Shown here one piece after another: positions 25,614-62,932 of a DNA stretch of 64,000 nucleotides. The notes below the pieces were generated by a model. That model ran no database searches. It was given only the letters and a program-made list of their open reading frames with translations, and was not told the DNA's origin. The stretch's first letter is position 1. Every line of letters begins with the position of its first letter. The stretch is from Verrucomicrobiota bacterium (GTDB taxonomy: Bacteria; Verrucomicrobiota; Lentisphaeria; JABSQK01; JAJFLO01): positions 2,039-66,038 of the forward strand of contig JAJFLQ010000134.1 in the NCBI GenBank assembly GCA_021772615.1, given 5' to 3'. The position numbers and the translations under genes are program-made.

Positions 25614-25856
<243 letters not shown>

Positions 25857-44674: not shown

Positions 44675-44974
44675 CGCGCCGGAACGAATGGTTTAAACAT
44701 TGAACAACGCTGAGATTTCCCTTTTCGTTTCGCCCTGTTCTTTGAAGCAGCTGAGTACTATGGCCACATAATCCCGTTGGATCCACCTGAGATCGACTGC
44801 ATAGGCGGAAAGTAGCTCGGGTATTCATGAAACGCTTTTTCCAGAATTCCAATTTTGGGATTGATCACAGGCACATGATTTTCTTGGCCAACGGGACGCT
44901 CACCACGGGGAAGCCGCCGCAGCGCATTCCCCGTTAGCGTGAAGCGACTTTATCGGGGGAAATCCGACAACTTA

Positions 44975-47710
44975 TCATGATTCGGAGATTTTGATCTGCA
45001 TACTTTTAAGCGTTTGCCTGGCCAGTTCGCAAACTTGTACGGAAATAGTCTTACGAGACGACTCGATGGCTTCCAATATGGGAACGCCTTTCGGATCTCC
45101 ACAGTGGCCTAATGCTTCGACAACCTCGGTTATTAACGCATTCTTCTTACGCCTTGGTATTTCGGCAATTACTTGCCACACGCTCGCATCTTTGCGATAG
45201 GTTAGTCCGACAGCCGCAATTAACCTGGTTTCCTGCTCGTCAGATTCAAGAGACTTCTTCAGTAATTCAAGTCCGTGAGCGGTGCCGATTAACGCCATTC
45301 CTCGCGCTGCCTTTGAGCGAAGATGAATGCGTACATCGTCATCCTGAAAAGTTGGCAGTCGCGGAGAAATGTAGGTCGATGGATCCAGGAAAAGAGTCTG
45401 CAAGATCTCCATCGCCGTAACATCACCTATTGTTCCGAGTGTCTTCGCAGCGGCGACTTGGACAGTCCAGATTGGATCACGTAGAGCTTGGATCAAAGGT
45501 CGAACGGCCTGTTGGTCGCCGACGTGTCCCAAAGAATTGGCTGCAGAGCAGCGTAGTGAATCAGACGGCGAACCAAGCGCCTTTATGAGGGCTGGAGAAA
45601 CACGAGAATCTCTGGTGTAACGCAACCCGTACGCAGCTGCGCTACCACAGTCATCCTTCTTAAGTCGAGACAGCAAACCGGATACAGAAGCACGTGTGTT
45701 AATGCGACCTAGCGCCTGCGCTGCGCTGCAGGTAATCATGGAATACTGGCCTGGCGTGCCCTCACCGGCCGTCAGTTCATATGTTTTGCCGTCTAGACTC
45801 CGCAACAACGGCCTAATCGCACGAGGATCTCCCATTTTTCCGAGCGCAATCGCTGCTGCTTTCCTGAACGGCCGTATGCCGCCCCCATCCCGCCAGGCCC
45901 GTGGTGAACAACAATCCAACAACGGCGCCGATCAGGCACCGATGTAGAAGTGTGCGCCTGCGGTTTCGCCGACTCTGTTCGATCCTGCTCGCGGCGATGA
46001 GGCGTTGCTCATGCGGCATTAACACACCCAGCCCCATTGCACCCTGTTCTACGACCAGCAAATCCGGTCCGTCGAGGATCGCACCGTGATGGTCGTTGGC
46101 CCACTCCACAGCGCGATTTTTCAGTATCCGTCGAGCGCGTGGCCCAGGAAGATCCGACTCGTCGAATTTGTGTCGTATCGGCAAGGCCAAGGTGTCGTGG
46201 GCCAAGCGCGTCGTTCTCTTCGCGCTGTTGCCTTTTGAGCCAGATTCGAACAGTAGATAAAGGTTCTTGCATTCCTCCAGGAGTCCGGAAAGCTCCTGCT
46301 TGTGATTATTGTACATCTTCATCAGGTCATCTCGACACCGCTCAGCCGCTGTCATTTGTGGTGTGGTATGATACACCAACAGGTCAAGCACAAACCCGGA
46401 CGACACCAAATCTGGATAGACTCCCGCCAACTGCGCGAGCTGGCGATCTACAAAGTCGTCCAGGAGCAGACCCTGCTTTTTGATTCGTAGGTAAAGGGAT
46501 TCGGTAAATGCTGGCGTGGCGCTACTCAACTCCGCGGCTTCTTCCCACATCTTTGTCAACAAGATTTGCAGTGCCGGCGCCGTCGGGGAGTCGCGATCGT
46601 TAAGCAGGTCATCGGCAATCTGTTCCGGAACATGGGTTTCTATGGTAAGGCCATATTGCTTTTGCAATCGTGCCGTGCTCACCAGCCCGTTCACAATTTC
46701 AATAACGGCGTCTCGATCCAATGCCTCAAGGAATACTCTTCCAAAGCTTACCGCGTTCAGATCGAATATTTTCTGGACCTCCGGGAACCACTCCTTACGA
46801 AATGACACGAGTATCTTTCCCTGAAAATCGCGACCGTCGACCGTGAATATTTCACTGAGCGCCTGCGCCAATTCAGCCAATTCATTGGGCCGGTCCGCGT
46901 TCGGATGCGTAAACACTTCCTCTACCTGATCCAATAGAATGATGAGCGGCTTGCCGACCGCGACCTCGGCGGTCCGCCATGCCACCCTCAAGGGGGTTCC
47001 AACTGTGGAATGCCCCGGGCCATCGCTCCCGTCCTGATCGTCGGCCAAATGGATTAAGGCCTTTTGAATCGTGATCGTAAGACTGTCCTTCTGGTCCCGG
47101 CGAATGTACAGGATCTCGTAATCCCTCTTCAATCGCGGCAGGAGGCCGGCAGCCAGGAATGACGATTTTCCCACTCCAGTTTGCCCATAGAGCATTGTGA
47201 TCGGTGCGGCGGCGGCGCTGGTGATCCGCTGGTACAAACTCTTCAGTTCCCGATTGCGACCGAAAAATATTTCGGCATCTGTTTCGACGAAATACTGTAA
47301 TTAACGGAACGGCTTCGCCGGCAGATCGCGCCGGGGCAGACCAGGCAAACCCCAGCAAGGGTCTGGAATCGGCAAGATATCGGCGCATCGTTCCGTAACA
47401 GTCGCGATTGGCGCAGGTCCGCCAGCGGCAACGGACGAACAGGCAACGGAGTCACACATTCAAGCAACGCCCAATCTTCATGCTGATCATGAAATGCGCC
47501 GTAAATTACGGCTTCGGTCGTGTGCTCCGGAAATTTCAGCGTGATTGTGCCGGGGGCAGGAACGGGTGGGGTTTGGAAACGATCTGCGACTACATGCAAC
47601 GCAGTGAGCATCAGCCGCTCGGACACCAGGCATCCGGTTCCGCGACTGATATTCGTGCCATCGTCGACGATATCAATGCGAGCGATGGCGTTTCGGACCA
47701 CAGAATCCAT
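44975..47710 (-). pseudogene. decayed paralog of the protease-NTPase-repeat gene: trypsin-like domain (internally deleted) - STAND-type NTPase - TM - HEAT repeats, split by nonsense and frameshift
   Basis: ORFs 47243..47710 (trypsin N-term, MDSVVRNAIARIDIVDDG..GTGCLV..LTALHVVAD), 45813..47237 (P-loop MLYGQTGVGKSSFLAAGLLPRL.., TM) and 44975..45922 (HEAT/PBS repeats LGKMGDPRAIRPLL..) are collinear with the intact 54580..58902 gene; in-frame TAA at 47301..47303 where the intact copy has Tyr (PFRY-LQYF); frame changes near 47375..47415 and in the overlap 45813..45922 containing a C5 tract (45881..45885). Confidence 0.55.
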
Positions 47711-48349
47711 GATAAAACCAACTCAGGGTTTATGTAATCGCAGAGCTTGGCTTCCGTGACGACGGTCTCGCGCCGACACGGGGATAGAATGTCATCAACG
47801 GCGACCAATGGCAAGTATACCACTTTTGCCGTGCTGCGTCATGTGCGGCTGATGTACCGCAAGGCTATCAACGTAAGTGTGCAAATACAAATTAATTATC
47901 GAAAGATAGACAATTGTTCTATCTCAAGCAAGCGATTACGTGGTTGCGGTGCATACTGTGTGGATGACTCTGTTTCGCGTCTCGAACGTCACGCAAAGCT
48001 CTGAAAACTGCCCCGATTGCTTCAACTGCTGATAGCTCGACAGCTGTTTTGATCCATCGGGCTTCTACAGCAAGGCTTTCAGTGCACCGAAGGCAGATGT
48101 GTAGGTATGTGCGCAGGCGGTGCAAAATGCGCCTTACAAATCGCTTACAAAGTTGCTTCGCTCTTCTGGGGCGGTGGCACGGATTCCCCGACCAGATGGC
48201 GTTCGCTGCGATCGAGAAACGTCCAACTTACCGCTCACCGACTTATGAGCCGATAGCCCCGACGAACGACCCGTTATCCCGGGAATCTCGCATGTGTGAC
48301 TCTTGAATGCATATGGGTATGATGTATTGTAATACCAAAAGGGGCTGAT

Positions 48350-48592
48350 ATGCCAACTGCAAAAATTGCGATAAGTATCGACGAATCTATACTTGGACGT
48401 TTAGATCGCCTAGTCCAGTCACACGTTTTCCCAAATCGTAGTAAGGCCGTTCAAAGGGCTATTGAAGAAAAGTTAAATCGGATAGATAAGACTCGTCTCG
48501 CCAGGGAGTGTGCAAAACTTGATCCCAAACTCGAACAATGCTTGGCGGAAGAGGGAATGGATTGGGAAGTCGACGAATGGCCAGAATACTAA
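48350..48592 (+). CDS. type II antitoxin (ribbon-helix-helix-like, MazE/PemI-type)
   Basis: 80 aa, [22 protein letters not shown]...[14 protein letters not shown]; overlaps the downstream toxin gene by 16 bp; locally low GC. Confidence 0.65.
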
Positions 48593-48915
48593 GGGGTGAC
48601 ATTATTTGGGCGGACTTTAGTCCTGTTCGCGGTCATGAACAGTCTGGCAAACGACCCGTATTGATTTTGAGTCACGATGTTTTCAATGAACGTTCCGGTA
48701 CCGTGATAGCAATGGCGTTGACAAGCCAACCGCAACGTGCAGGCTATCCCTTGACTTACCAAATCACCACTTCGGATATGCCTAAGTCGTCGTGGGTTAA
48801 GATCAGTCAAATAAGGACTATCTCGACTCAGAGACTGGGCCGAAAAGTAGGAAAATTGGCATCGGAAGAGCTGGAAATTATCATTGATGGGCTAAACGAA
48901 ATAATCGGAGGATGA
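48577..48915 (+). CDS. MazF/PemK-family toxin (mRNA interferase)
   Basis: [34 protein letters not shown]...VIAMALTSQ typical PemK/MazF N-terminus; start set at internal Met 14 of ORF 48538..48915. Confidence 0.8.
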
Positions 48916-48963
48916 CCAGATAGCCACGAGCCGAATGATGAATCTTAGCAGAGCTCGGCAGTT

Positions 48964-49035
48964 TGAGGTAAAAGCCCAGTAACGTTGAACGTCCATTTTG
49001 GGGATCATCAAATCGATGGTGCGGGCGACCACGTT
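48964..49035 (+). repeat. dispersed intergenic repeat, type Y, copy 2 (carries small ORF 48985..49089)
   Basis: tgaggtaaaagcccagtaacgttgaacgtccattttggggatcatcaaatcgatggtgcgggcgacca. Confidence 0.6.
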
Positions 49036-49111
49036 ACCGTTCCTGTCATGATATATCCAATGGCACGCCGGCTGCAATCTGTAGCGTGATCAATTGTCGT
49101 TGGATAAAGGC

Positions 49112-49160
49112 TTTCGTTGGCGTCCACATTCCCGCTGAGCGGTGGCTGTGAACGTCCAAC
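49112..49160 (+). repeat. dispersed repeat type X copy 2
   Basis: tttcgttggcgtccacattcccgctgagcggtggctgtgaacgtccaac. Confidence 0.55.
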
Positions 49161-49415
49161 CCGTGTCGACTTACATGTCTCTTGGAGAAAAATTCATAAT
49201 TTGAACCGTACAATGCGGAATTTTGATCCAGGTTTCGGCAGGTCGCCGCGTCGCGTTAATGAGCTGAAACGCATCGAAGACTGCCGTCCCGCAAAAATGC
49301 GGGAGCGGTACCAAAACAGATCGCTCGTTCCGCAAGGCTTGTCACTACGCAAGTTACAGATGGTTATGGGATTGCTATTTACGCCTAACCTATTCGAGAG
49401 CACGTGCTTTGAGAC

Positions 49416-50825
49416 CTACTCGCTCCATTTCGAGGCATGCTCGGATTGCCGGCGGTAGAGGGCGGGATTGAAATATTTCTCGTAATATTCCAGTTCGATA
49501 TGGCATACCTGTACCCAGGTCCCCGGCGCGTAAAAGGCGTCGGTGTGCGCGGGAAAGCGACCATAGGTATCGAAGATATAGTTACAAATTTCCTTGGTGT
49601 ATTCTATGGTCTCCGGAGAATACTGCATACCGCTCGCTCGAAATCGCTCAACATCGCCTGCATCCCGGTACGAACGGCTGAAAATGGCGGTGTCCGCATA
49701 GGCTGCACGCTTGTCCTCAAGATGGCGATCGACGGCTTCGTCCATTGACGTCACATAAGGCGGACAGAGCCCCTCAAGAACACCATTAATTCCTACCGGA
49801 TTTGGCTGAGTCGACGGTAAAGGCGGCCAGCACGTCCATTCTTTTTTGGGGGTCTCCATGCGAAAACCAAGACCGTGTAATCCTTTCTCGTCGTCACGCT
49901 GAAAGATGTAAGGCGCCTGCGCGCAGGCATGCACCCAGCTGCCCAGCCCCAACGCCTGGGATACGAGCATCAGGTTTTGTTGTATGAAATAGGCTTCGTG
50001 ATCGGACAGCATCGTGCGAGCGAGACCGAGCGGGAACATAATTTTGGGATTCACGAACCCGCCTTTGACGCGGTCAACGCCCCCAATTGGCTGGTAAGGA
50101 ATATCTGGTATGAGTCCCAGATGATCGGCCGCCCAGGCCGCCCAGTCTTTGATATTGCGGGGATGGAAATGCTGCCAGTCATCGATGAACAAGGGGCGTT
50201 CGCCATCCGGACTCGCCAGCACATTCAGGATGCCGTTTATGTACATGCGCGTGGTATCGACAATCGGGAGAAACATGGTCGTGCCGGGGACATTGGAAAT
50301 TTGTCGATTCCACCCCATGTAATACGGGAATTTTCTCGGAAAATCGAGACGACGGTCCGAAATTCTGTGTTTTGCGGTATCCGCGACGTGCAGCCAATCC
50401 GCTTCTGCCCAGTCCTCCCAGCGCGCTGGAAGATCCTTGAGAAGATCAAGTCCTTCTTTTCCCTCCAACCGCCGAATTAACCACGTGCCGTCATCATTGG
50501 TCATGAATATCCGTGTCGGCTGGCTGTTATCCGGACTGCTTGCCGCCCTGCCGAGAATATTCATGAATGGTGTGGCCAGCTCTTTACCGTCGTCTTTGTA
50601 ATCGAGTGGACCATCGTGAGTAGTAATGGCCGTGAGCCCTGTCGAAGCAATGAGAATGGCTTCCTCAAGAGGGCGTAAAGGGGCCGGCGCGTTGGTGCTC
50701 TCGTGGCTCATCGCGCCGGAGTGAATCGAGGTGCCTTGGGCTACCCTCCGACTACGGCGATGGAGAATGGCGGACAGTAAGGGGTAGTCGAAGAGTTCTT
50801 TGAGGCCGCTTTTTTTATTTGGCAT
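49416..50825 (-). CDS. large (469-aa) nitroreductase-fold protein (SagB/ThcOx-like size), function unknown
   Basis: N-terminal LSAILHRRSRRV (RRSxR FMN-binding-type motif) and C-terminal NLMLVSQALGLGSWVHA (nitroreductase LGLGxxW motif); both by-eye. Confidence 0.4.
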   Translation of the reverse strand: MPNKKSGLKELFDYPLLSAILHRRSRRVAQGTSIHSGAMSHESTNAPAPLRPLEEAILIASTGLTAITTHDGPLDYKDDGKELATPFMNILGRAASSPDNSQPTRIFMTNDDGTWLIRRLEGKEGLDLLKDLPARWEDWAEADWLHVADTAKHRISDRRLDFPRKFPYYMGWNRQISNVPGTTMFLPIVDTTRMYINGILNVLASPDGERPLFIDDWQHFHPRNIKDWAAWAADHLGLIPDIPYQPIGGVDRVKGGFVNPKIMFPLGLARTMLSDHEAYFIQQNLMLVSQALGLGSWVHACAQAPYIFQRDDEKGLHGLGFRMETPKKEWTCWPPLPSTQPNPVGINGVLEGLCPPYVTSMDEAVDRHLEDKRAAYADTAIFSRSYRDAGDVERFRASGMQYSPETIEYTKEICNYIFDTYGRFPAHTDAFYAPGTWVQVCHIELEYYEKYFNPALYRRQSEHASKWSE

Positions 50826-50874
50826 GGTAACTCACTTTGTGATTTAAGATTAGTCTGATCAATTCCTTTCAGCC

Positions 50875-51098
50875 GTGCGGTCGCTGGGGACATCGACCCT
50901 CCACAAGACCGTAAAACGTGTCGTGCGGTCGGTGCGGACATCGACCCTCCACAAGACTGCAAAACGTGTGGTGCGGTCGCTGGGGACATCGACCCTCCAC
51001 AAGACTGCATAACGTGTGGTGCGGTCGCTGGGGACATCAACCCTCCACATGACTGCAGAACGTGTCGTGCGGTCGCTGGGGATCTGTGTCCTCTACGC
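50875..51098. repeat. 48-bp tandem repeat, ~4.6 copies (minisatellite)
   Basis: units gtgcggtcgctggggacatcgaccctccacaagactgcaaaacgtgtc at 50875, 50923, 50971, 51019 plus a partial at 51067; a few substitutions per unit; intergenic between two minus-strand genes. Confidence 0.85.
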
Positions 51099-51114
51099 TA
51101 CAATTAAATCCCCC

Positions 51115-54579: not shown

Positions 54580-57500
54580 TCAATCAACATGCCGTGCAAC
54601 TACGCTTTGCTGATCAATCGGCACAGTTTTCCACAGGCAGCGCTTACAAACCTTGGATGCGTCCCTCATCAACTGTGATTTCTCCGAACGATACTTGAAC
54701 TCGTACTGCAAGCGGTTACAGGCGATCTCAAGCCAATCGCGCCAATCCACGCGCCAGTGCCAAATCTGATTATCGGAGCTGCCGACAATGAGGTACTTAC
54801 CGTCTGCGCTGAAGGCCAGGGACGTGAATGTCGCCGCGCGGTAATCAGCAAGCACATCCGATATCAGCTCCATGCCACGGCCCCAGAGCCGCGCGACACC
54901 GTCTACTCCCGTGCTGGCAATCCTGCTGCCATCCGGACTGAATGCGAGAGCCGTTATGGGACCGTTATGCGCTCTCTTTTCACTCACCAGATTCGTGTTC
55001 GTGTCCAAATGCCACGAAAGAATAAATCCGTTTTCGGTACCGCTGAGAAGTATGTGTCCCGCCGGGTTGAAGGCCAGACTCGTTGGCGTGGAATACAGGT
55101 CCGATGTTGTTTGCAGAAGATTGCCGTCCAGATCCCACAATCGGACTGTGAGATCATCCGAGCACGTCGCGATACGATCTCCCTGCGGGTGGAAGGCAAC
55201 GGCTGTAATTACACCGCTATGCCCAACGAGATCACTCACGCATTGTCTCGTATCCACATCCCATAATCGCACCTGCTGATCAGCGCTGCCGCTGGCCACT
55301 AAATTGCCGTCCGGGCTGAACGCAATACAGGTTATCGGGGCGTAATGTCCCGACAACGGATCGCCGTCCGATTTACCTCCTGCCGTCCAAAACCTGAGAT
55401 ACTCATCGATCCCGCCGCTGACAAGGACGGTCCCGTCGGGATGTATGGCGAGGGACGATATGGAACCGGAACGGACTTCCACATTCCAGCCCGGCCGGTG
55501 TGTAGCCGCCGACCACCTGCGAATTGTGCCGCCCTGGCCGGCGCTGAAAAAGGCGTCGCCATCCGGGCTGTATGCCACCGCATTTACGGCAGCATCGTGA
55601 GCCTCAATCGGTTTCCCCACCATTATGCCCTCGGGATCAAGGAATTTAAGGGTTCCCTGATCGGTCCCGAATGCAATGAATGTGCCATTCGGATGGTAGC
55701 CTAGCGATTCCACGTTACCGACGTAACCCGTGAAGTCGGGGGCCACGTTGTTACCTTCGAAGTCGATAAAACGGATGGCACGGTCGTCGCCGGCACTGAC
55801 GATTCGCTCGCCATTCGAATGAACAACCAGGCTGGTGACCGCGCCGCCATGATGGGTAAACGGCTCTTTCGCCGCACTCCCGTCGAGATGCCACAACCGC
55901 ACCGTTCCATCGTCGCCACCGCTGACGAGCATGTCTCCTGCCGGATTGAACACAACGGCATTCACGCTCCCTGCGTGCCCGTCAATTGAGGTGAGCGATT
56001 CGTCTTCGAACTGAAATATGTGGATCTTGCCGTCACCGCTGGCGCTGGCAAAAGAAGTGCCGTCCGGGTTGAAAGAAATCTGATGGATGACCGCATGGTG
56101 TGCTTCTTTTGGCAATCGCAAGCTGGCGCCATTCGCGTCCCACAACTGTATCGACCCATCCCAGCAACCACTAAGTATTCTTGTACCATCAGAACTGATC
56201 GCCACTGCCGTAACATACTTGCGATTCGGTACGGGTTCACACCACACCTCGACACCCTCGGTAGTCCAAAAACACACTGTCCCGGCAGCACCGCCGCTGA
56301 CGATATGACAACCGTCCGGCGTGTAGACGACGGATTCAACACCTTCCTCATGCCCGGTAAAATTTTTATTAACAACCGTTCCATCCAACATTACCTGCTG
56401 GATAACAGGTTTGATTCCTCCGCATGCAACCGTGTGCCCATCCGGACTGAATGCGATCGAGTTGATGCCCCCCAACTTCGGAAACCAGATCGCATTCTTC
56501 TCCCGTGCGACTTCCACAGCACTGCTTAGTCCATGTTGTATGCCGTGCAGAACCCGATCGAACTGATCTTCGCTCTTGCCTACTAAAGCCACCGCGTTCG
56601 CCAGCGCCAACGCGGGTTCCTTTGAGAGCTTCTCGGGCATTTCGGCCGCTTCTTTTCGGATTAATGCTTCTTTGAATCGCCGTTGGGCCGTTTGTTTCTC
56701 CTCCTCCGCCTTCCTGCGTTCGGCCAACGCCGTGTTCTTATCGCGCTCAGCATCTACCTTTGCCTCTCTCGCCTCATGCGCCTTTTTTACCGCTTCATGC
56801 ATTCCGGTCCAGGCGAGTCCCGTCATAATCACCATTCCAACCACCGCCGCCGCCAGGCCCATATGCAACATCTGCCGAACACGATCTCTGCGTTTACGTT
56901 CAATCTTGCTGGCGGCCACGAGCCGTTTTTCATGCGGCATCAACACACCAAGGCCGCTTGCGCCGGCTTCGACAATCGCCAGGTCTGCCCTGTCCAGGAC
57001 GGCGCCAACTCGGTCGTCCTTCCATTCCATTGACCGATTCCCCAGGATACGACGAGCACGCGGACCCGGAAGATCCGATTCGTCGAAACGACAGCGAACC
57101 GGCAATGCGAGCGTATCGTGAGCCAGGCGAGTAACCTTCTTACCGGCCATCTGGTCATTCGACGAGTCGACGAGGAGGTATAGGCTCTTGCATCGCTCTA
57201 TCAAGGCGTCCAGATCATACCGGTGATTGCAATAGGTACGGTGAAGCTCATCTTCGCTGCGTGCCGCGGCAGTCATCATCGGTGTCGTGTGATAAACCAG
57301 GAGATTTAGCACGAAACCGGTATCCACCGCGTCACGGTGGTGTGCCGCCAGCTGACCCAGCTGACGATCCACAAAATCAGCCAGCAGCAGCCCGCATTTC
57401 TTGACGTCGTGATAGAGCTCGATCGTAAACGCCGGTGCCGAATTATTCGATTCCGTGGCTGCCTCCCACATCTTCGTCAGTAGGATTTGCAATGCAGGAG

Positions 57501-58902
57501 CGGTTGGCGACTCACGGTCTCTGAGGAGGTCATTGGCGACGAGCGCTGGTACCGCCGGATCTATGGTCAGCCCATAGTGTTGGCGAAGGCGCACGGTACT
57601 GTGCAGTCCGGCAACGATTTCGATGACGGCTTCATGATCGAGTGCTTCAAGAAAAACCTTGCCGAACCCCACGTCGCTCGATTCGAAAACCTTTTGTACT
57701 TCCGGGTACCACTCTTTGCGAAACGAGAAAATGATCCTGTTTCTGGACGACGGATTCCCGTTGGAGAACATGTGTTTCAGCACCTGAACAAGTTCGACGA
57801 GTTCATCTGGCTGGTTTTCGGTAGGTCGCGTAAAAACCTCCTCAACCTGGTCCAGTAAGATGACTATCGGTTTGCGAGCGTCGGTTTCCGCGGCACTCCA
57901 CACAGCAGGCAAGGGATCGGAAACAGAAGAATGCGGCTGCGAGTTAGCAGACGCGGGATCGGCTGTCAACTGAATCAATGCCCTGCGAATCGAACCGGAC
58001 AAGGTATCGTACTGGTCGCGGCGAACATAGAGAATTTCGTAGTGCCACGCCAGTCTGGGCAAGAGCCCGGCCGCGAGGAAGGATGACTTTCCTACTCCGG
58101 ACTGGCCATAGAGCAACGTGATCGGGGATGCGTCCTCGGCGATGACCCGTGAATACAAGGACCTGATCTCTCTATTCCTGCCAAAGAAAATTTCCGCGTC
58201 CTGCTCATCGAAATACTGTAGGTATCGAAAAGGTTTGACCGGTAATGGTCGACGCTGCAGACCGGGCAGTCCCCAACAGGGGTCGGGTATCGGCAGAAAG
58301 TCGGCGCATTTATCGATTATTGCAGCAATCGGACAGGCATACAACGTACCGGCCACAGCCTGATCATCCTTCATCAGAGCGAATCGCAACACACCCACGA
58401 TGGCGTTGTCTACGATCATCGGTGCGCCCGAGAGCCCTTTCACGGGTGCGCCTTCTCCTCCGGCAGCCTGCTTGCTGAACAATTGAATCGCGTCGATACC
58501 GTTGAGTAGTGCCTTGTGATTCTCCACCGTTCCCGTCTGGATCATGCCGTCAACCGGTTGGGAATCTGGAAATCCGTAGGTGACGAAATCGCCACCGGAC
58601 CTGCCGAGGTTGGCAAGGGGAATCGGCCGCGCCGAAACGGTATTCAGGCACGTTAACAACACCCAATCACTGTGGGGATCGAAGTATGAATCATAGATGG
58701 CTGCTTCGACGACGCCTTCGGGGAATTGCAGAAATATCGTGCCAGGGTGTGGCAGGGGCGGATTCTTTTCACGGTCGGCGACGACATGAAGAGCGGTAAG
58801 CACCAGACCGTCTGCAATCAGGCATCCGGTCCCACGACTCTTGCTTCTGCCTTCATCACCAACTTCGATGCGGGCGATAGCGTTTCGGACCAACGCGTCC
58901 AT
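54580..58902 (-). CDS. 1440-aa multidomain protein: trypsin-like serine protease - STAND-type P-loop NTPase - single TM - coiled coil - WD40 beta-propellers
   Basis: protease: GTGCLIADGLVLTALHVVAD..GLSGAPMIVDNAIVGVL; NTPase: ITLLYGQSGVGKSSFLAAGLLPRL, Walker B IVILLDQVEEVF; TM MGLAAAVVGMVIMTGLAWTG; Lys/Glu/Arg-rich coiled coil; >=12 WD repeats (..GHxxxVxxVAFSPDG..GSxDxTVRLWD..). Confidence 0.85.
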   Translation of the reverse strand: MDALVRNAIARIEVGDEGRSKSRGTGCLIADGLVLTALHVVADREKNPPLPHPGTIFLQFPEGVVEAAIYDSYFDPHSDWVLLTCLNTVSARPIPLANLGRSGGDFVTYGFPDSQPVDGMIQTGTVENHKALLNGIDAIQLFSKQAAGGEGAPVKGLSGAPMIVDNAIVGVLRFALMKDDQAVAGTLYACPIAAIIDKCADFLPIPDPCWGLPGLQRRPLPVKPFRYLQYFDEQDAEIFFGRNREIRSLYSRVIAEDASPITLLYGQSGVGKSSFLAAGLLPRLAWHYEILYVRRDQYDTLSGSIRRALIQLTADPASANSQPHSSVSDPLPAVWSAAETDARKPIVILLDQVEEVFTRPTENQPDELVELVQVLKHMFSNGNPSSRNRIIFSFRKEWYPEVQKVFESSDVGFGKVFLEALDHEAVIEIVAGLHSTVRLRQHYGLTIDPAVPALVANDLLRDRESPTAPALQILLTKMWEAATESNNSAPAFTIELYHDVKKCGLLLADFVDRQLGQLAAHHRDAVDTGFVLNLLVYHTTPMMTAAARSEDELHRTYCNHRYDLDALIERCKSLYLLVDSSNDQMAGKKVTRLAHDTLALPVRCRFDESDLPGPRARRILGNRSMEWKDDRVGAVLDRADLAIVEAGASGLGVLMPHEKRLVAASKIERKRRDRVRQMLHMGLAAAVVGMVIMTGLAWTGMHEAVKKAHEAREAKVDAERDKNTALAERRKAEEEKQTAQRRFKEALIRKEAAEMPEKLSKEPALALANAVALVGKSEDQFDRVLHGIQHGLSSAVEVAREKNAIWFPKLGGINSIAFSPDGHTVACGGIKPVIQQVMLDGTVVNKNFTGHEEGVESVVYTPDGCHIVSGGAAGTVCFWTTEGVEVWCEPVPNRKYVTAVAISSDGTRILSGCWDGSIQLWDANGASLRLPKEAHHAVIHQISFNPDGTSFASASGDGKIHIFQFEDESLTSIDGHAGSVNAVVFNPAGDMLVSGGDDGTVRLWHLDGSAAKEPFTHHGGAVTSLVVHSNGERIVSAGDDRAIRFIDFEGNNVAPDFTGYVGNVESLGYHPNGTFIAFGTDQGTLKFLDPEGIMVGKPIEAHDAAVNAVAYSPDGDAFFSAGQGGTIRRWSAATHRPGWNVEVRSGSISSLAIHPDGTVLVSGGIDEYLRFWTAGGKSDGDPLSGHYAPITCIAFSPDGNLVASGSADQQVRLWDVDTRQCVSDLVGHSGVITAVAFHPQGDRIATCSDDLTVRLWDLDGNLLQTTSDLYSTPTSLAFNPAGHILLSGTENGFILSWHLDTNTNLVSEKRAHNGPITALAFSPDGSRIASTGVDGVARLWGRGMELISDVLADYRAATFTSLAFSADGKYLIVGSSDNQIWHWRVDWRDWLEIACNRLQYEFKYRSEKSQLMRDASKVCKRCLWKTVPIDQQSVVARHVD

Positions 58903-59257
58903 GGTGAAACCAAATCAGGTTTTATATAATCGCATGGATTGGCTTCCGTGCCGGTAAGCGGATCTCAACGGCAACCAACGCATGGCACTGATTTTGCCAT
59001 GCTGCGACAATCGCGACCTGCGAATACGGTAAGGCTAACAGCGGAAGTGCCCGAATACAAATGAATTGTCGAAACGGCTCCAGATTCCCGCGCAGATCTT
59101 GCAATACAGCCACTGCACCGCTACAGTTTTATCGCAGAGCATACGTCAAGAACCGCGATCAAGCTGGATGTATCCGCGTACGGCTGGCTACCTTTAACCG
59201 AAGAATCGATTTTGCGATCGATTGCTTCATTTTCTCAACAAGGGGGAACGGTATCTC

Positions 59258-61105
59258 ATGCAAAAAGGCAAACTGAAAATACTGGCGGGCTCTGGGGCTT
59301 TGGTTCGTCTCATTGGACGAGCGGCGGAAACATACGATGTAACCGTCGATAAGGATGTTCTCGTGTGGACTCACAGCCCAAGCTCACCGAACGGCACGCT
59401 GGAGGGCAAACAAATTCAGTCGGTCACACGACACGGAGCGGCCTTCATCGTGAATCTCCTGGCGAATACCAACGGAATACCGGCGTTGACATTTGAAGCT
59501 TCATCTGTATCAGACGCAAAGAAATGGACCACTGCTATTGAGGGGATTATCGGAAAAGCGCAAACCTGTATCCCCGACGCAGTACCAGCTGGGGTGGCGG
59601 ACGCAACGCCGGTGAGTGTGACGTACCAGGTAGCGAATTCCAACGCGGTCACAAAAGACTGTGCGCTCCTGGTAATCGCTTGTGATCCCAGGAATCTGGA
59701 TGGCGTGATTGATTATACCTCAGAGGAATCGGACATTTTCAGCAAGCTGATCAATTTCACATTTCACACAACGCTAATGAATGTGGAGGTACAAGGGCCT
59801 CAATCGTACGGCGTCATTTTTGCGCCGGGTCCTCTGGACGATATGAATGGCAGCTTCTACGGTTTTCGAAACGAAACGGCCAAACAATTCGGCCTGGACG
59901 CCGCCAATAAATTGTCTCACAATCTGGTGACGGTATATCAACTCGCAGGTCCCAGAGACACACCCTGGACTGATGAAGAATTCCAAAAGCTCCTGAAGCA
60001 ACAGCTGAAGACCAGTGACTGGTGGCCTTACGGGGACAAGTACGATATTCGTAAGACGGTGACGACACCCTACTTTGATCATTTCTCACAAGCCGGATTA
60101 AAAGAACACCTGCCTTGGAAAATTCTTGATTTGCAGGGCCAAAAGAATACCCTGTTTGTCCATGCCTTCACGTGTTTTGAGTCGGTGTTGCATTGTTGGG
60201 GTTATGCCAATTTGATGCTGGACAATTATCCGTGTGCGAAACAGGCGCTACCCAGGGAACTTGATGCCCCCATAGTCATACTCGGGGCCGGCCCCAGCGG
60301 ACTTTTGTTCGCCACGGCGCTTAAGCAACGCGGCTACACCAATGTGCAGATTCTGGAGGTTACGGATCGATATGGTGGAAAAACGCATACCGTCCTTGAA
60401 GATGGGCCGTGTCCTCCTGGAGCAACCGAAAAAACAGTCTGCGAATTGGGCACCTGTTATCTGTCTCCGGCGTACGATCCAATGGTCACCGCACTCAAGG
60501 AGTTTCTTACTGGAAACAAACAAATCGACTTCACCGCCGACAATCCAAATTTTCGAGGAATCGTAACAACTGGCGAGTTGCCTCCTTCACCCGACCTCGA
60601 CACCGTGATTGATTATGGCGAATACGTAATTCTAAAGGCGGAAGAAGAACTCGATTTCCCAAATTCCAAATTGAACCGAATCCTGGCGACGCTGGATATC
60701 GCGCTCGACCTCGGTAAGTATTCGTTAATTCACGCGGAATACATGGGATGGACGTTGCCGATGCCCAGCAATCCGCCGGAGGCGCTCGATCAAAAATTTG
60801 GCAACCAGAAATTTATTGATTTCCTGCGGTACCATAAGTTGATGTCTCTTGCCGGAATGTTGGAGTACGGTTATGAAGTACAGGGCTACGGCAGACTCAC
60901 CTCGATTCCGGCCTACTACGGGTTGCTATGGATGACACCCGCCATTACCTGGACGATATTACTGGACCAGCTCAAGTTGGAAGACAAACCCGTCGTCACC
61001 GCATGGACAAAAGGTTGGGGAGATGTATGGGATCAGATCGTCCGGAAGCAAGGTATCAATATCACCCTAAATGCAAAAACAACCTCCATCACGCGAACGA
61101 GATGA
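59258..61105 (+). CDS. two-domain protein: N-terminal PH-like domain + C-terminal FAD-dependent amine-oxidase-like domain
   Basis: start MQKGKLKIL with AAGGGGGAAC RBS (ORF 59222..61105 trimmed); dinucleotide-binding motif IVILGAGPSGLLFATALKQRGYTNVQILEVTDRYGGK at ~aa 335. Confidence 0.5.
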   Translation: MQKGKLKILAGSGALVRLIGRAAETYDVTVDKDVLVWTHSPSSPNGTLEGKQIQSVTRHGAAFIVNLLANTNGIPALTFEASSVSDAKKWTTAIEGIIGKAQTCIPDAVPAGVADATPVSVTYQVANSNAVTKDCALLVIACDPRNLDGVIDYTSEESDIFSKLINFTFHTTLMNVEVQGPQSYGVIFAPGPLDDMNGSFYGFRNETAKQFGLDAANKLSHNLVTVYQLAGPRDTPWTDEEFQKLLKQQLKTSDWWPYGDKYDIRKTVTTPYFDHFSQAGLKEHLPWKILDLQGQKNTLFVHAFTCFESVLHCWGYANLMLDNYPCAKQALPRELDAPIVILGAGPSGLLFATALKQRGYTNVQILEVTDRYGGKTHTVLEDGPCPPGATEKTVCELGTCYLSPAYDPMVTALKEFLTGNKQIDFTADNPNFRGIVTTGELPPSPDLDTVIDYGEYVILKAEEELDFPNSKLNRILATLDIALDLGKYSLIHAEYMGWTLPMPSNPPEALDQKFGNQKFIDFLRYHKLMSLAGMLEYGYEVQGYGRLTSIPAYYGLLWMTPAITWTILLDQLKLEDKPVVTAWTKGWGDVWDQIVRKQGINITLNAKTTSITRTR

Positions 61106-61129: not shown

Positions 61130-61290
61130 CATTGCTGATGTTTGTAGTACTCGTCGGCCTGCCTGTCTTTCATAAGCGTGGATCGCAGCAGAGCGACAAC
61201 GGCATCGTCGATGATCATCGGCGCACCTGAAAGGCCTTTTACTGGAGCGCCCTCGCCTGCTGCCGCCTGTTTACCAGAGCTCGACTTATG
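61130..61290 (-). pseudogene. orphan 3' fragment of a trypsin-like protease domain
   Basis: minus-strand translation SSGKQAAAGEGAPVKGLSGAPMIIDDAVVALLRSTLMKDRQA matches the catalytic-Ser region of 54580..58902; preceded by in-frame stop. Confidence 0.5.
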
Positions 61291-61477
61291 TTGAGCTCAA
61301 CCGTCTGTAAAGTTGAATGCCATCATCCTTGCACCGTTTAGAAGGGACGCGGCGTGTTGATAAAGGACAACTATACAGCTCTGTCCAACTCTGGTTAACG
61401 TTTGCCGGGGGATTTTGCTTTCTTTTTTTCTTTGCGGCTTTGCGTCTCTGCGCGAGTTCAATTTCGTTACGGATTGA

Positions 61478-61557
61478 TGTAGCCACGGCTCTGTGAGCTG
61501 TGCCACGCAACGCGAAGCAACGTAAAGTACGGCACGTCTCACAGAGACGTGGCTACA
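61478..61557. repeat. long imperfect hairpin (20-bp arms, 1 mismatch, 40-nt loop with nested pairing)
   Basis: tgtagccacggctctgtgag ... ctcacagagacgtggctaca. Confidence 0.6.
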
Positions 61558-61624
61558 CGCTGCCGCTTCCACCAGCGTTTGGCGTACAGACTTTTGACGT
61601 GTAGCTGCAAACGACGTTGGTTTC

Positions 61625-61706
61625 GGGGTGTAGGCGACCGCTTTACAGTTACTCGGCCGGGCAACCACAAAATCTGCGCGAACTGTAAAGCGGTCGCCTA
61701 CACCCC
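61625..61706. repeat. perfect 26-bp inverted repeat with 30-bp spacer
   Basis: ggggtgtaggcgaccgctttacagtt ... aactgtaaagcggtcgcctacacccc. Confidence 0.7.
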
Positions 61707-61740
61707 GGACGCGGCATGTTTAAAAAATGGGCGTTCAACC

Positions 61741-62289
61741 TTACAGCTCTGTCGAACTCTGGAGAGCGAACCGCAGCACACCAACCACGGCGTTGTCCAT
61801 CAGCATTGGTGCGCCCGACAACCCCTTAACGGGCGCTCCGTCGCCGGCCGCCGCCTGCTTGCTGTATAGCTGAATGGCATGAATGCCGTTTAGCTGCCCG
61901 TGATGGTTCTCCACGGTTCCGGTCTGAATCATGCCGTCAACCGGTTGCGAATCGGGGAACCCGTAGGTAACGAACTCGCCGCCCGACTCGCGGAGGTCTG
62001 CAAGCGGGAGGGGCTGGATTGGGACCGATTCTTCGCACTTCAATATCGCCCAGTCGCCCTGGGGATCGTAATAGGTTTCATACAGCGTCGCTTCGACCTT
62101 ACATTCAGGAAAGGTGAGCGTGATTGTGCCGGGATAAGCGGCAGGGGGATTCTCGAACCGATTCGCGACGACGTGCAACGCCGTAAGCACCAGCCGATCG
62201 GCTACCAGGCAACCGGTACCGCGACTGAGATTTTTGCCGCCGTCGTTGACGTCGATTCGAGCGATAGCATTTCGGACCAACGCGTCCAT
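61741..62289 (-). CDS. stand-alone trypsin-like protease domain (third paralog, truncated after protease domain)
   Basis: MDALVRNAIARIDVNDGGKNLSRGTGCLVADRLVLTALHVVAN...GLSGAPMLMDNAVVGVLRFALQSSTEL*; high identity to N-terminus of 54580..58902 but stops where the intact gene continues into the NTPase. Confidence 0.55.
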   Translation of the reverse strand: MDALVRNAIARIDVNDGGKNLSRGTGCLVADRLVLTALHVVANRFENPPAAYPGTITLTFPECKVEATLYETYYDPQGDWAILKCEESVPIQPLPLADLRESGGEFVTYGFPDSQPVDGMIQTGTVENHHGQLNGIHAIQLYSKQAAAGDGAPVKGLSGAPMLMDNAVVGVLRFALQSSTEL

Positions 62290-62932
62290 GATGAAACCCA
62301 ATCTGTGCAAGCGCAATGTTTGCCTACGGCGACATCGATCTCTTGCCAGGTAGAGAACGAATGATGTCACAACTGGTGGCCGCTAAATGATTGTAACCAC
62401 CGCAGCGATGCGACACCAAAGAACATTACTGGCGTACACCGCAAGGCTAACCGCAGAAATATAAGAATGCAAACCAACTACGAATAGACCTCCCCCAACC
62501 TATCGACCATCGACATCATGTTTCGCGCCAGGACGCGTCTGCGCAACAACGTCTGGAGGGCGGATGGCCCCAGCCGCCGATTTAAACCAATCTTGCGCGC
62601 TCGCAAGCCGAGGGCGGTTCCAAGACTATATCGCACACCAACTTGTAGCGGGAAATCCGGCGAGATCGGCCCAGGAATCGGCAAAATATTGACATCTAAG
62701 TGTACGATTAATACCTTTTGTATAGCTAGATGTCAATCTAGGGAATCGTAATCTGTGATAATTCTTACGCACGCCTAGCCTCAGTAACGACATGGCGTAT
62801 AGTATGAGCTACTTTCGCGGGAAATGATGGATTTTGTAAGAAGGCAAAATCGTTAACCTCTCACATTTGCCTACTTCAACGTGAAGTATATTCGTATAAG
62901 AAACTTGTGTCATAGTAGAATTACTAACAAGA

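Follow-up and report, generated by a model that had tools for sequence, protein, structure and literature searches.

nSTAND1 is a clade of STAND NTPases named by Kaur, Iyer, Burroughs, and Aravind (2021, eLife; PMC8195603), whose members carry variable N-terminal effectors, peptidases included, and have been proposed to act in counter-invader conflict systems; nSTAND1 proteins have also been described as putative antigen sensors (Doré et al. 2024; PMC10907252). The window analyzed here, a 64,000-nucleotide stretch of DNA from a Verrucomicrobiota bacterium, contains an intact gene of this kind, in which a single frame encodes Trypsin_2, nSTAND1 (PF20703), a transmembrane (TM) helix, a coiled coil of about 100 aa, and WD40 propellers. 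The order of trypsin-like effector, NTPase, (TM helix), and repeats is common to this intact paralog and to database nSTAND1 STAND proteins such as P0002, P0014, and P0076. To our knowledge, no experimental function has been reported for the trypsin-nSTAND1-TM-WD40 subgroup. By analogy, the intact paralog would sense a ligand through its WD40 repeats, oligomerize on NTP binding, and activate the protease, and the arginine-rich segment that precedes the TM helix suggests a topology with protease and NTPase in the cytoplasm and the WD40 part across the membrane.

A second copy lies on the minus strand at 44975..47710, in three overlapping or abutting reading frames (Table 1). Compared with nSTAND1 STAND proteins in general, it is without the serine motif of the protease and without a sensor, and a premature stop has been added. 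The most probable reading, and one we hold with good confidence, is that 47710..45860 is a pseudogene, an old paralog recently inactivated, and that the HEAT-repeat frame following it is a separate downstream gene that a deletion brought up against it.

Two other described systems resemble parts of the locus. Avs1b, the AVAST type 1 protease, has a similar N-terminal protease (PADLOC E = 1.8e-13 for the intact gene and 4e-17 for a third fragment of the family), and the NCBIfam Avs1b model scored 40.7 bits (E = 4e-11) against a cut-off of 1500, with only the first ~180–270 residues aligning. Being weak and local to the protease, this match does not place the genes in Avs1; the NTPase clade differs, and neither the TM helix nor WD40 is an Avs1 feature by these models. 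All PADLOC matches were weak and at the level of single domains. NACHT-HEAT STAND proteins (P0229, P0234, P0235) have a HEAT_PBS array as their C-terminal module, an architecture present in six of the seven long HEAT matches sampled. They differ in having an NTPase of another clade (NACHT) and much longer arrays (600–900 aa), and their similarity to the HEAT ORF of the window is that of single repeats, in many short stretches.

Table 1. Features of the decayed copy, its intact paralog, and the conserved upstream regions (window coordinates)
Feature	Position	Strand	Basis or remark
155-aa ORF	47243..47710	-	first 102 residues trypsin-like
474-aa ORF	45813..47237	-	nSTAND1 NTPase by score
315-aa open frame	44975..45922	-	HEAT/PBS repeats (Pfam)
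Upstream leader/promoter region (candidate)	47711..47950	-	three-way alignment A2
Trypsin-like protease domain remnant, codons 1–102	47405..47710	-	tblastn and Pfam
Internal out-of-frame deletion junction	47405..47414	-	tblastn, frame reading
Nonsense codon TAA for paralog Tyr227 (TAC)	47301..47303	-	codon-by-codon comparison
nSTAND1 NTPase module	45939..47300	-	Pfam, tblastn
Predicted transmembrane helix CLIGAVVGLLFTTGLAGW	45885..45938	-	Kyte-Doolittle, alignment to intact helix
NTPase gene/HEAT gene breakpoint, one base out of frame	45860..45866	-	frame display, tblastn
NTPase-frame stop codon	45813..45815	-	ORF list, frame display
HEAT-repeat gene without its first ~50 codons	44975..45859	-	tblastn, alignment A1, Pfam
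Intact paralog, 1440 aa	54580..58902	-	Pfam; reference gene
Conserved upstream regions	47711..47950, 58903..59150, 62290..62540	-	blocks including TTAGCCTTGCGGTA and TGTCGCAGCA

Lesions in the protease and NTPase parts

Using tblastn, we obtained two matches of the intact protein in two different minus-strand frames: residues 1–102 aligned to 47710..47405 (58% identity, E = 8e-34) and residues 190–708 to 47414..45858 (61% identity, gapless, E = 0.0). At the nucleotide level the two copies are 65–74% identical, and the alignment of 44975..47710 with 54580..58902 is collinear over 47710..45860. These collinear matches confirm that the decayed copy keeps the order of trypsin, P-loop NTPase, and TM helix found in the intact gene, as had been read from its translation in the original prediction. 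No single frame passes through effector, NTPase, and sensor repeats, the reading being interrupted by two frame breaks and one stop.

The 155-aa ORF matched Pfam Trypsin_2 (PF13365; 29.3 bits, E = 1.7e-6) and retains the His (LTALHVV) and Asp (DWALL) motifs. The His/Asp/Ser triad is incomplete, as GLSGAP (intact residues ~156–161) falls inside a 271-nt deletion; GLSGAP is the usual serine-nucleophile motif of the trypsin-like fold (GxSGxP), and the His, Asp, and Ser residues of this protease are presumably catalytic, judging from what is known of these motifs. Both copies exceeded the nSTAND1 cut-off of 27.1 bits, the intact one with 113.7 and the decayed one with 71.2, which assigns the decayed copy to the family, although its NTPase ORF spans only profile positions 31–279. 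Walker A (GQTGVGKSS, ~47163..47186) and Walker B (LIILLDQVEE) both align with those of the intact copy. So does the predicted TM helix, which is preceded by an arginine-rich stretch and reaches a best 19-residue Kyte-Doolittle mean of 1.72, compared to 1.92 in the intact copy. The decayed copy contains no homolog of any relative's sensor, and a search for a WD40 remnant near it returned none.

The first frame break is an internal deletion. Relative to the intact paralog, the net loss at 47405..47414 is exactly 271 nt (3n+1), given by the offset to the intact gene (571 − 300), and covers codons ~103–190 (~88 codons), the GLSGAP motif included. As the net loss is 3n+1, one event accounts for both the missing ~88 codons and the change of frame. 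The frame break and the loss of the serine region had been recognized beforehand, with a size of ~100 aa that tblastn and frame comparison correct to about 88 codons. At the junction, the same bases read ...LADLRQS in frame 0 and APIATVTERCAD... in frame +2, and both frames are paralog-like across it (LRQS in one, APIA in the other). The shared heptamer CCAATCG suggests a microhomology deletion between short repeats. The ancestral length of this region is known, since the third family copy is gapless relative to the intact gene over aa 1–181.

The second lesion is a nonsense codon: KPFR-TAC-LQYF of the intact copy, with TAC encoding Tyr227, reads KPFR-TAA-LQYF in the decayed copy. Codon-by-codon comparison thus bears out, as a TAC to TAA change, the in-frame stop that had been proposed at a tyrosine of the paralog. 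TAA is an ordinary stop in this DNA, ending 6 of the 24 large ORFs in the window, and there is therefore no sign of recoding. The 519-codon NTPase stretch contains no other stop.

The junction between the NTPase and HEAT frames

The HEAT ORF (44975..45922) matched Pfam HEAT_2 (E = 7e-32) and HEAT_PBS, and gene callers start the gene at ATG 45835, giving 286 aa. Pfam and the frame display agree with the original prediction that the C-terminal continuation is a HEAT array in another frame, and the NTPase stop at 45813 gives the 110-bp overlap between the two ORFs that it described. Its candidate indel site, a C5 tract within this overlap, proved to be misplaced. The run occupies 45882..45886, one base off the 45881..45885 given before, and paralog similarity in the NTPase frame extends beyond it (GLAGWGRHTAV vs GLAWTGMHEAV), ruling it out as the frameshift site. 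The last paralog-matching residue is a Val at 45869..45867 and the first HEAT-family residue an Ala at 45859, in the +1 frame. Both genes are cut within the same 7-nt spot, 45860..45866, with no linker: the TM helix is followed directly by sequence from midway through the second HEAT repeat, and the NTPase frame reads 17 out-of-frame codons of HEAT-gene DNA before its stop. The common 7-nt cut and the missing linker look like the result of a deletion joining two neighboring genes, and one deletion would be the simplest account of this 3′ junction.

The relatives of the HEAT frame are free-standing proteins of the HEAT/PBS-lyase type (P0126/P0127-like, ~350 aa). From 45859 to 44975 the frame aligned with such proteins of 314–441 aa at 39–53% identity in one collinear stretch, running from residue ~45–57 of the relatives to their end. 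The best word-indexed matches were P0126/P0127 (354 aa, ~50–53% identity, 97% coverage), P0128 (347 aa), and P0129 (314 aa). P0126 residues 52–344 (51.5% identity) and P0128 residues 51–337 aligned by tblastn to 45859..44996, and tblastn found no counterpart of P0126 residues 1–51 at the locus. Unlike the free-standing proteins, the window ORF lacks about one and a half repeats at its start (~50 residues), and its 5′ end is joined to NTPase pseudogene DNA. In alignment A1 it begins inside the second repeat, directly after the VQV of the relatives, at AAAxALGxxGD; P0129 is also short at its N-terminus. An exhaustive HMMER search was dominated by giant repeat proteins matching in many short stretches, and its single-stretch collinear matches were 354–441 aa proteins only (P0127, P0307, P0340), again starting from residue 45–57.

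We found no nSTAND1 gene beside P0127, P0128, or P0129 on their three readable contigs, and no HEAT domain in any of the 120 best-scoring NTPase relatives (0/120). The C-terminal modules of these 120 proteins were WD40, TPR, FGE-sulfatase, LRR, and PF07603, and their N-terminal effectors Trypsin_2 or CHAT. With its kin free-standing, no nSTAND1 neighbor on those contigs, no HEAT domain among the NTPase relatives, and no linker at the junction, the proposal that the sensor had been swapped from WD40 to HEAT is not supported: the array lies in a different frame and its closest kin stand alone, and it is not seen as a C-terminal domain of the NTPase, either here or in those 120 relatives. Downstream of the HEAT gene, tblastx against L003–L007 showed no conserved synteny. 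Unique substitutions in the HEAT ORF (33/106) were not in excess of those in relatives (29/102 and 22/95), indicating that it is still usable from an internal start or was only recently truncated. Translation from that start may continue, or the HEAT ORF may have become a new pseudogene in its own right.

We also considered whether a Trypsin-nSTAND1-TM-HEAT chimera was once one working frame and decayed later, through a 1-nt frameshift at the junction and the two other lesions. HEAT_PBS arrays are common as C-terminal modules of bacterial NACHT-type STAND proteins, the two frames are one base apart with an A3 run at the junction (GGAAAG), and the HEAT ORF shows neither stops nor visible degradation, all of which a chimera would accommodate. 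It is nevertheless an unlikely history, as the HEAT part is orthologous along its whole length, to the C-terminus, to standalone ~350-aa proteins and starts inside their second repeat. A chimera would moreover have had no linker between TM helix and repeats, where the intact copy has its coiled coil, would represent an nSTAND1-HEAT fusion seen in none of the 120 closest relatives, and would require one mutation more than the deletion model, with the proposed C5 indel site excluded. Similarly improbable is that the 3′ junction is a snapshot of NLR-like sensor gain, in which the chimera made by the deletion worked for a time and was then lost, within a birth-and-death cluster of old STAND paralogs that includes the fragments at 61156..62370 and would be comparable to plant or fungal NLR clusters. 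That the HEAT ORF could still work leaves room for some selected role of the junction.

Age of the decayed copy and the course of its decay

Over the 519 gapless codons, the decayed and intact copies differ with pS = 0.80 (saturated) and pN = 0.25. At sites conserved in nine outgroup proteins, unique changes numbered 19 in the decayed and 16 in the intact copy (p = 0.74). Saturated synonymous sites without rate acceleration indicate an old paralog that died recently, and the constraint signal together with the sole stop indicates that for nearly the whole period since duplication the gene evolved under constraint and presumably worked. Diversifying selection had been suggested as the force behind the locus. 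The data do not support this, as the NTPase part carries a signal of strong purifying selection without rate asymmetry. The central claim, a decayed paralog of the intact gene, holds: it has a nonsense codon, an out-of-frame deletion of the serine motif, and no sensor.

The pseudogene carries three lesions, whose order and timing we infer. A single 271-nt out-of-frame deletion, probably between the CCAATCG repeats, took the serine motif of the protease, and a TAC to TAA change introduced the stop at Tyr227. A larger deletion, beginning just past the TM helix and reaching codon ~50 of the gene that follows, would have removed the original sensor, the stop codon, the spacer between the two genes, and about one and a half repeats at the start of the HEAT array, joining the NTPase and HEAT genes out of frame. 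We expect no product of the locus to function as a STAND switch, as there is no nucleophile, a truncated NTPase start, and no sensor; the longest NTPase ORF can start only after the conserved FFGRNRE segment. No close ortholog of the decayed copy was found, with genome contigs reaching only 43–44% identity and metagenome contigs yielding none, and cluster look-ups returned no relatives at ≥90% identity to the window proteins. The ancestral sensor and the full downstream HEAT gene are therefore reconstructed rather than observed.

It is very unlikely that the locus is instead a remodeled, working gene set, composed of an NTPase-TM protein of 460–474 aa and a 286-aa HEAT partner. Gene callers annotate both ORFs, which are long and stop-free, and Walker A and B are intact, but an absence of further stops is equally expected of a recent pseudogene. 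The first start (TTG 47237) comes after the conserved PFRYLxxF...FFGRNRE, leaving nSTAND1 positions 1–30 missing, the NTPase ORF terminates in its 17 out-of-frame codons, and the arrangement was seen in no relative among the top 120 NTPase kin and the three HEAT contigs.

The sequence itself was reproduced in a second assembly. Positions 44792..50904 of the window (6113 bp) match Logan contig L002 (run SRR15505516) at 100% identity, and gene calls on L002 gave the same 155-, 474-, and 286-aa products; the intact paralog has an identical protein in the independent Logan contig L001. An assembler-specific error at the lesions is very unlikely. Least credible of all is that the lesions are sequencing or assembly errors in a locus truly encoding one intact protein: the contig is metagenome-derived, the NCBI and Logan assemblies may share reads, and a 1-nt frameshift in the relative on L008, whose contig naming may mean long reads, could be such an error, but two different assemblers agree completely over 6.1 kb, one lesion is a base substitution and the other two are losses of 271 nt and of several kb, rather than the homopolymer indels typical of sequencing error, and repairing every frame would bring back neither the serine motif nor a sensor.

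Other copies, upstream regions, and interrupted relatives

Upstream of the intact gene, the family is represented by two further fragments. An ORF consisting of the trypsin domain alone (61741..62370, minus strand) covers aa 1–181 at 70% identity, keeps GLSGAP, and ends after VLRFAL; the second is a 39-codon fragment (61156..61272, minus strand) covering aa 144–182 at 77% identity. Their pS against every other copy is 0.65–0.77, near saturation, indicating that the fragments at 61156..62370 are remnants of old paralogs. The 61741..62370 fragment shows an excess of unique changes (11 vs 2). A 27-nt direct repeat (89% identity; 61368..61394 and 61736..61762) brackets sequence interrupting this third fragment, and the bracketed sequence contains an inverted repeat (61624..61707) whose 27-nt arms match perfectly around a 30-nt loop; the bracketed sequence may be a small insertion element. 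Beside the 39-codon fragment, an amine-oxidase-like ORF (59222..61105, plus strand) matches only Pfam positions 2–230 of 443, at its C-terminal end. It looks 3′-truncated, which would make it another rearrangement scar.

The ~230 nt upstream of three of the copies (the decayed copy, the intact gene, and the third fragment) have a mean column identity of 71% in the three-way alignment A2. Such conservation, despite saturated synonymous sites in the coding sequence, suggests a constrained leader or promoter. The leader matched no Rfam family, a tRNA at 25761..25834 being the sole Rfam match in the whole window, and RNAalifold on three sequences offered too little covariation to judge. A promoter and terminator scan of 44700..48400 gave counts no different from those of shuffled sequence. 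Elsewhere in the neighborhood, a ribbon-helix-helix antitoxin and a PemK/MazF toxin form a pair (48350..48592 and 48538..48915, both on the plus strand) at a distance of 640 bp from the pseudogene's 5′ end. Between ORF 49416..50825 and a GMC-oxidoreductase gene, a 48-nt unit is repeated about five times in tandem (50875..51114), and Logan contigs L001 and L002 end in or beside this array.

Frame breaks also occur in several of the closest metagenomic Trypsin-nSTAND1 relatives, within the ~50–90 codons upstream of the TM helix or at it. On L008 (7930..8034) and L010 (2190..2215), the WD40 part resumes in a different frame; the breaks in P0015 and P0017 were judged solely by reading the C-termini of the proteins. 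Such breaks could be repeated pseudogenization, sequencing error, or something regular, and their sites and contexts differ. Short Trypsin-nSTAND1 proteins (654–677 aa) were considered as a natural sensorless form. This was rejected, as P0009 (L008) and P0005 (L010) come from genes of full length in which a frameshift interrupts the frame shortly before the TM helix, and P0003 extends to the end of its contig.

The feature is an ordinary one: a paralog belonging to a known type of STAND NTPase that was inactivated recently. Its apparent change of sensor is most simply an effect of deletion and should not be counted as sensor-domain shuffling. With no fewer than three broken copies and one intact one in 18 kb, the locus provides a modest example of the turnover of bacterial STAND/NLR-like genes, and the broken copies, along with the interrupted metagenomic relatives, fit the idea that such genes are lost repeatedly.
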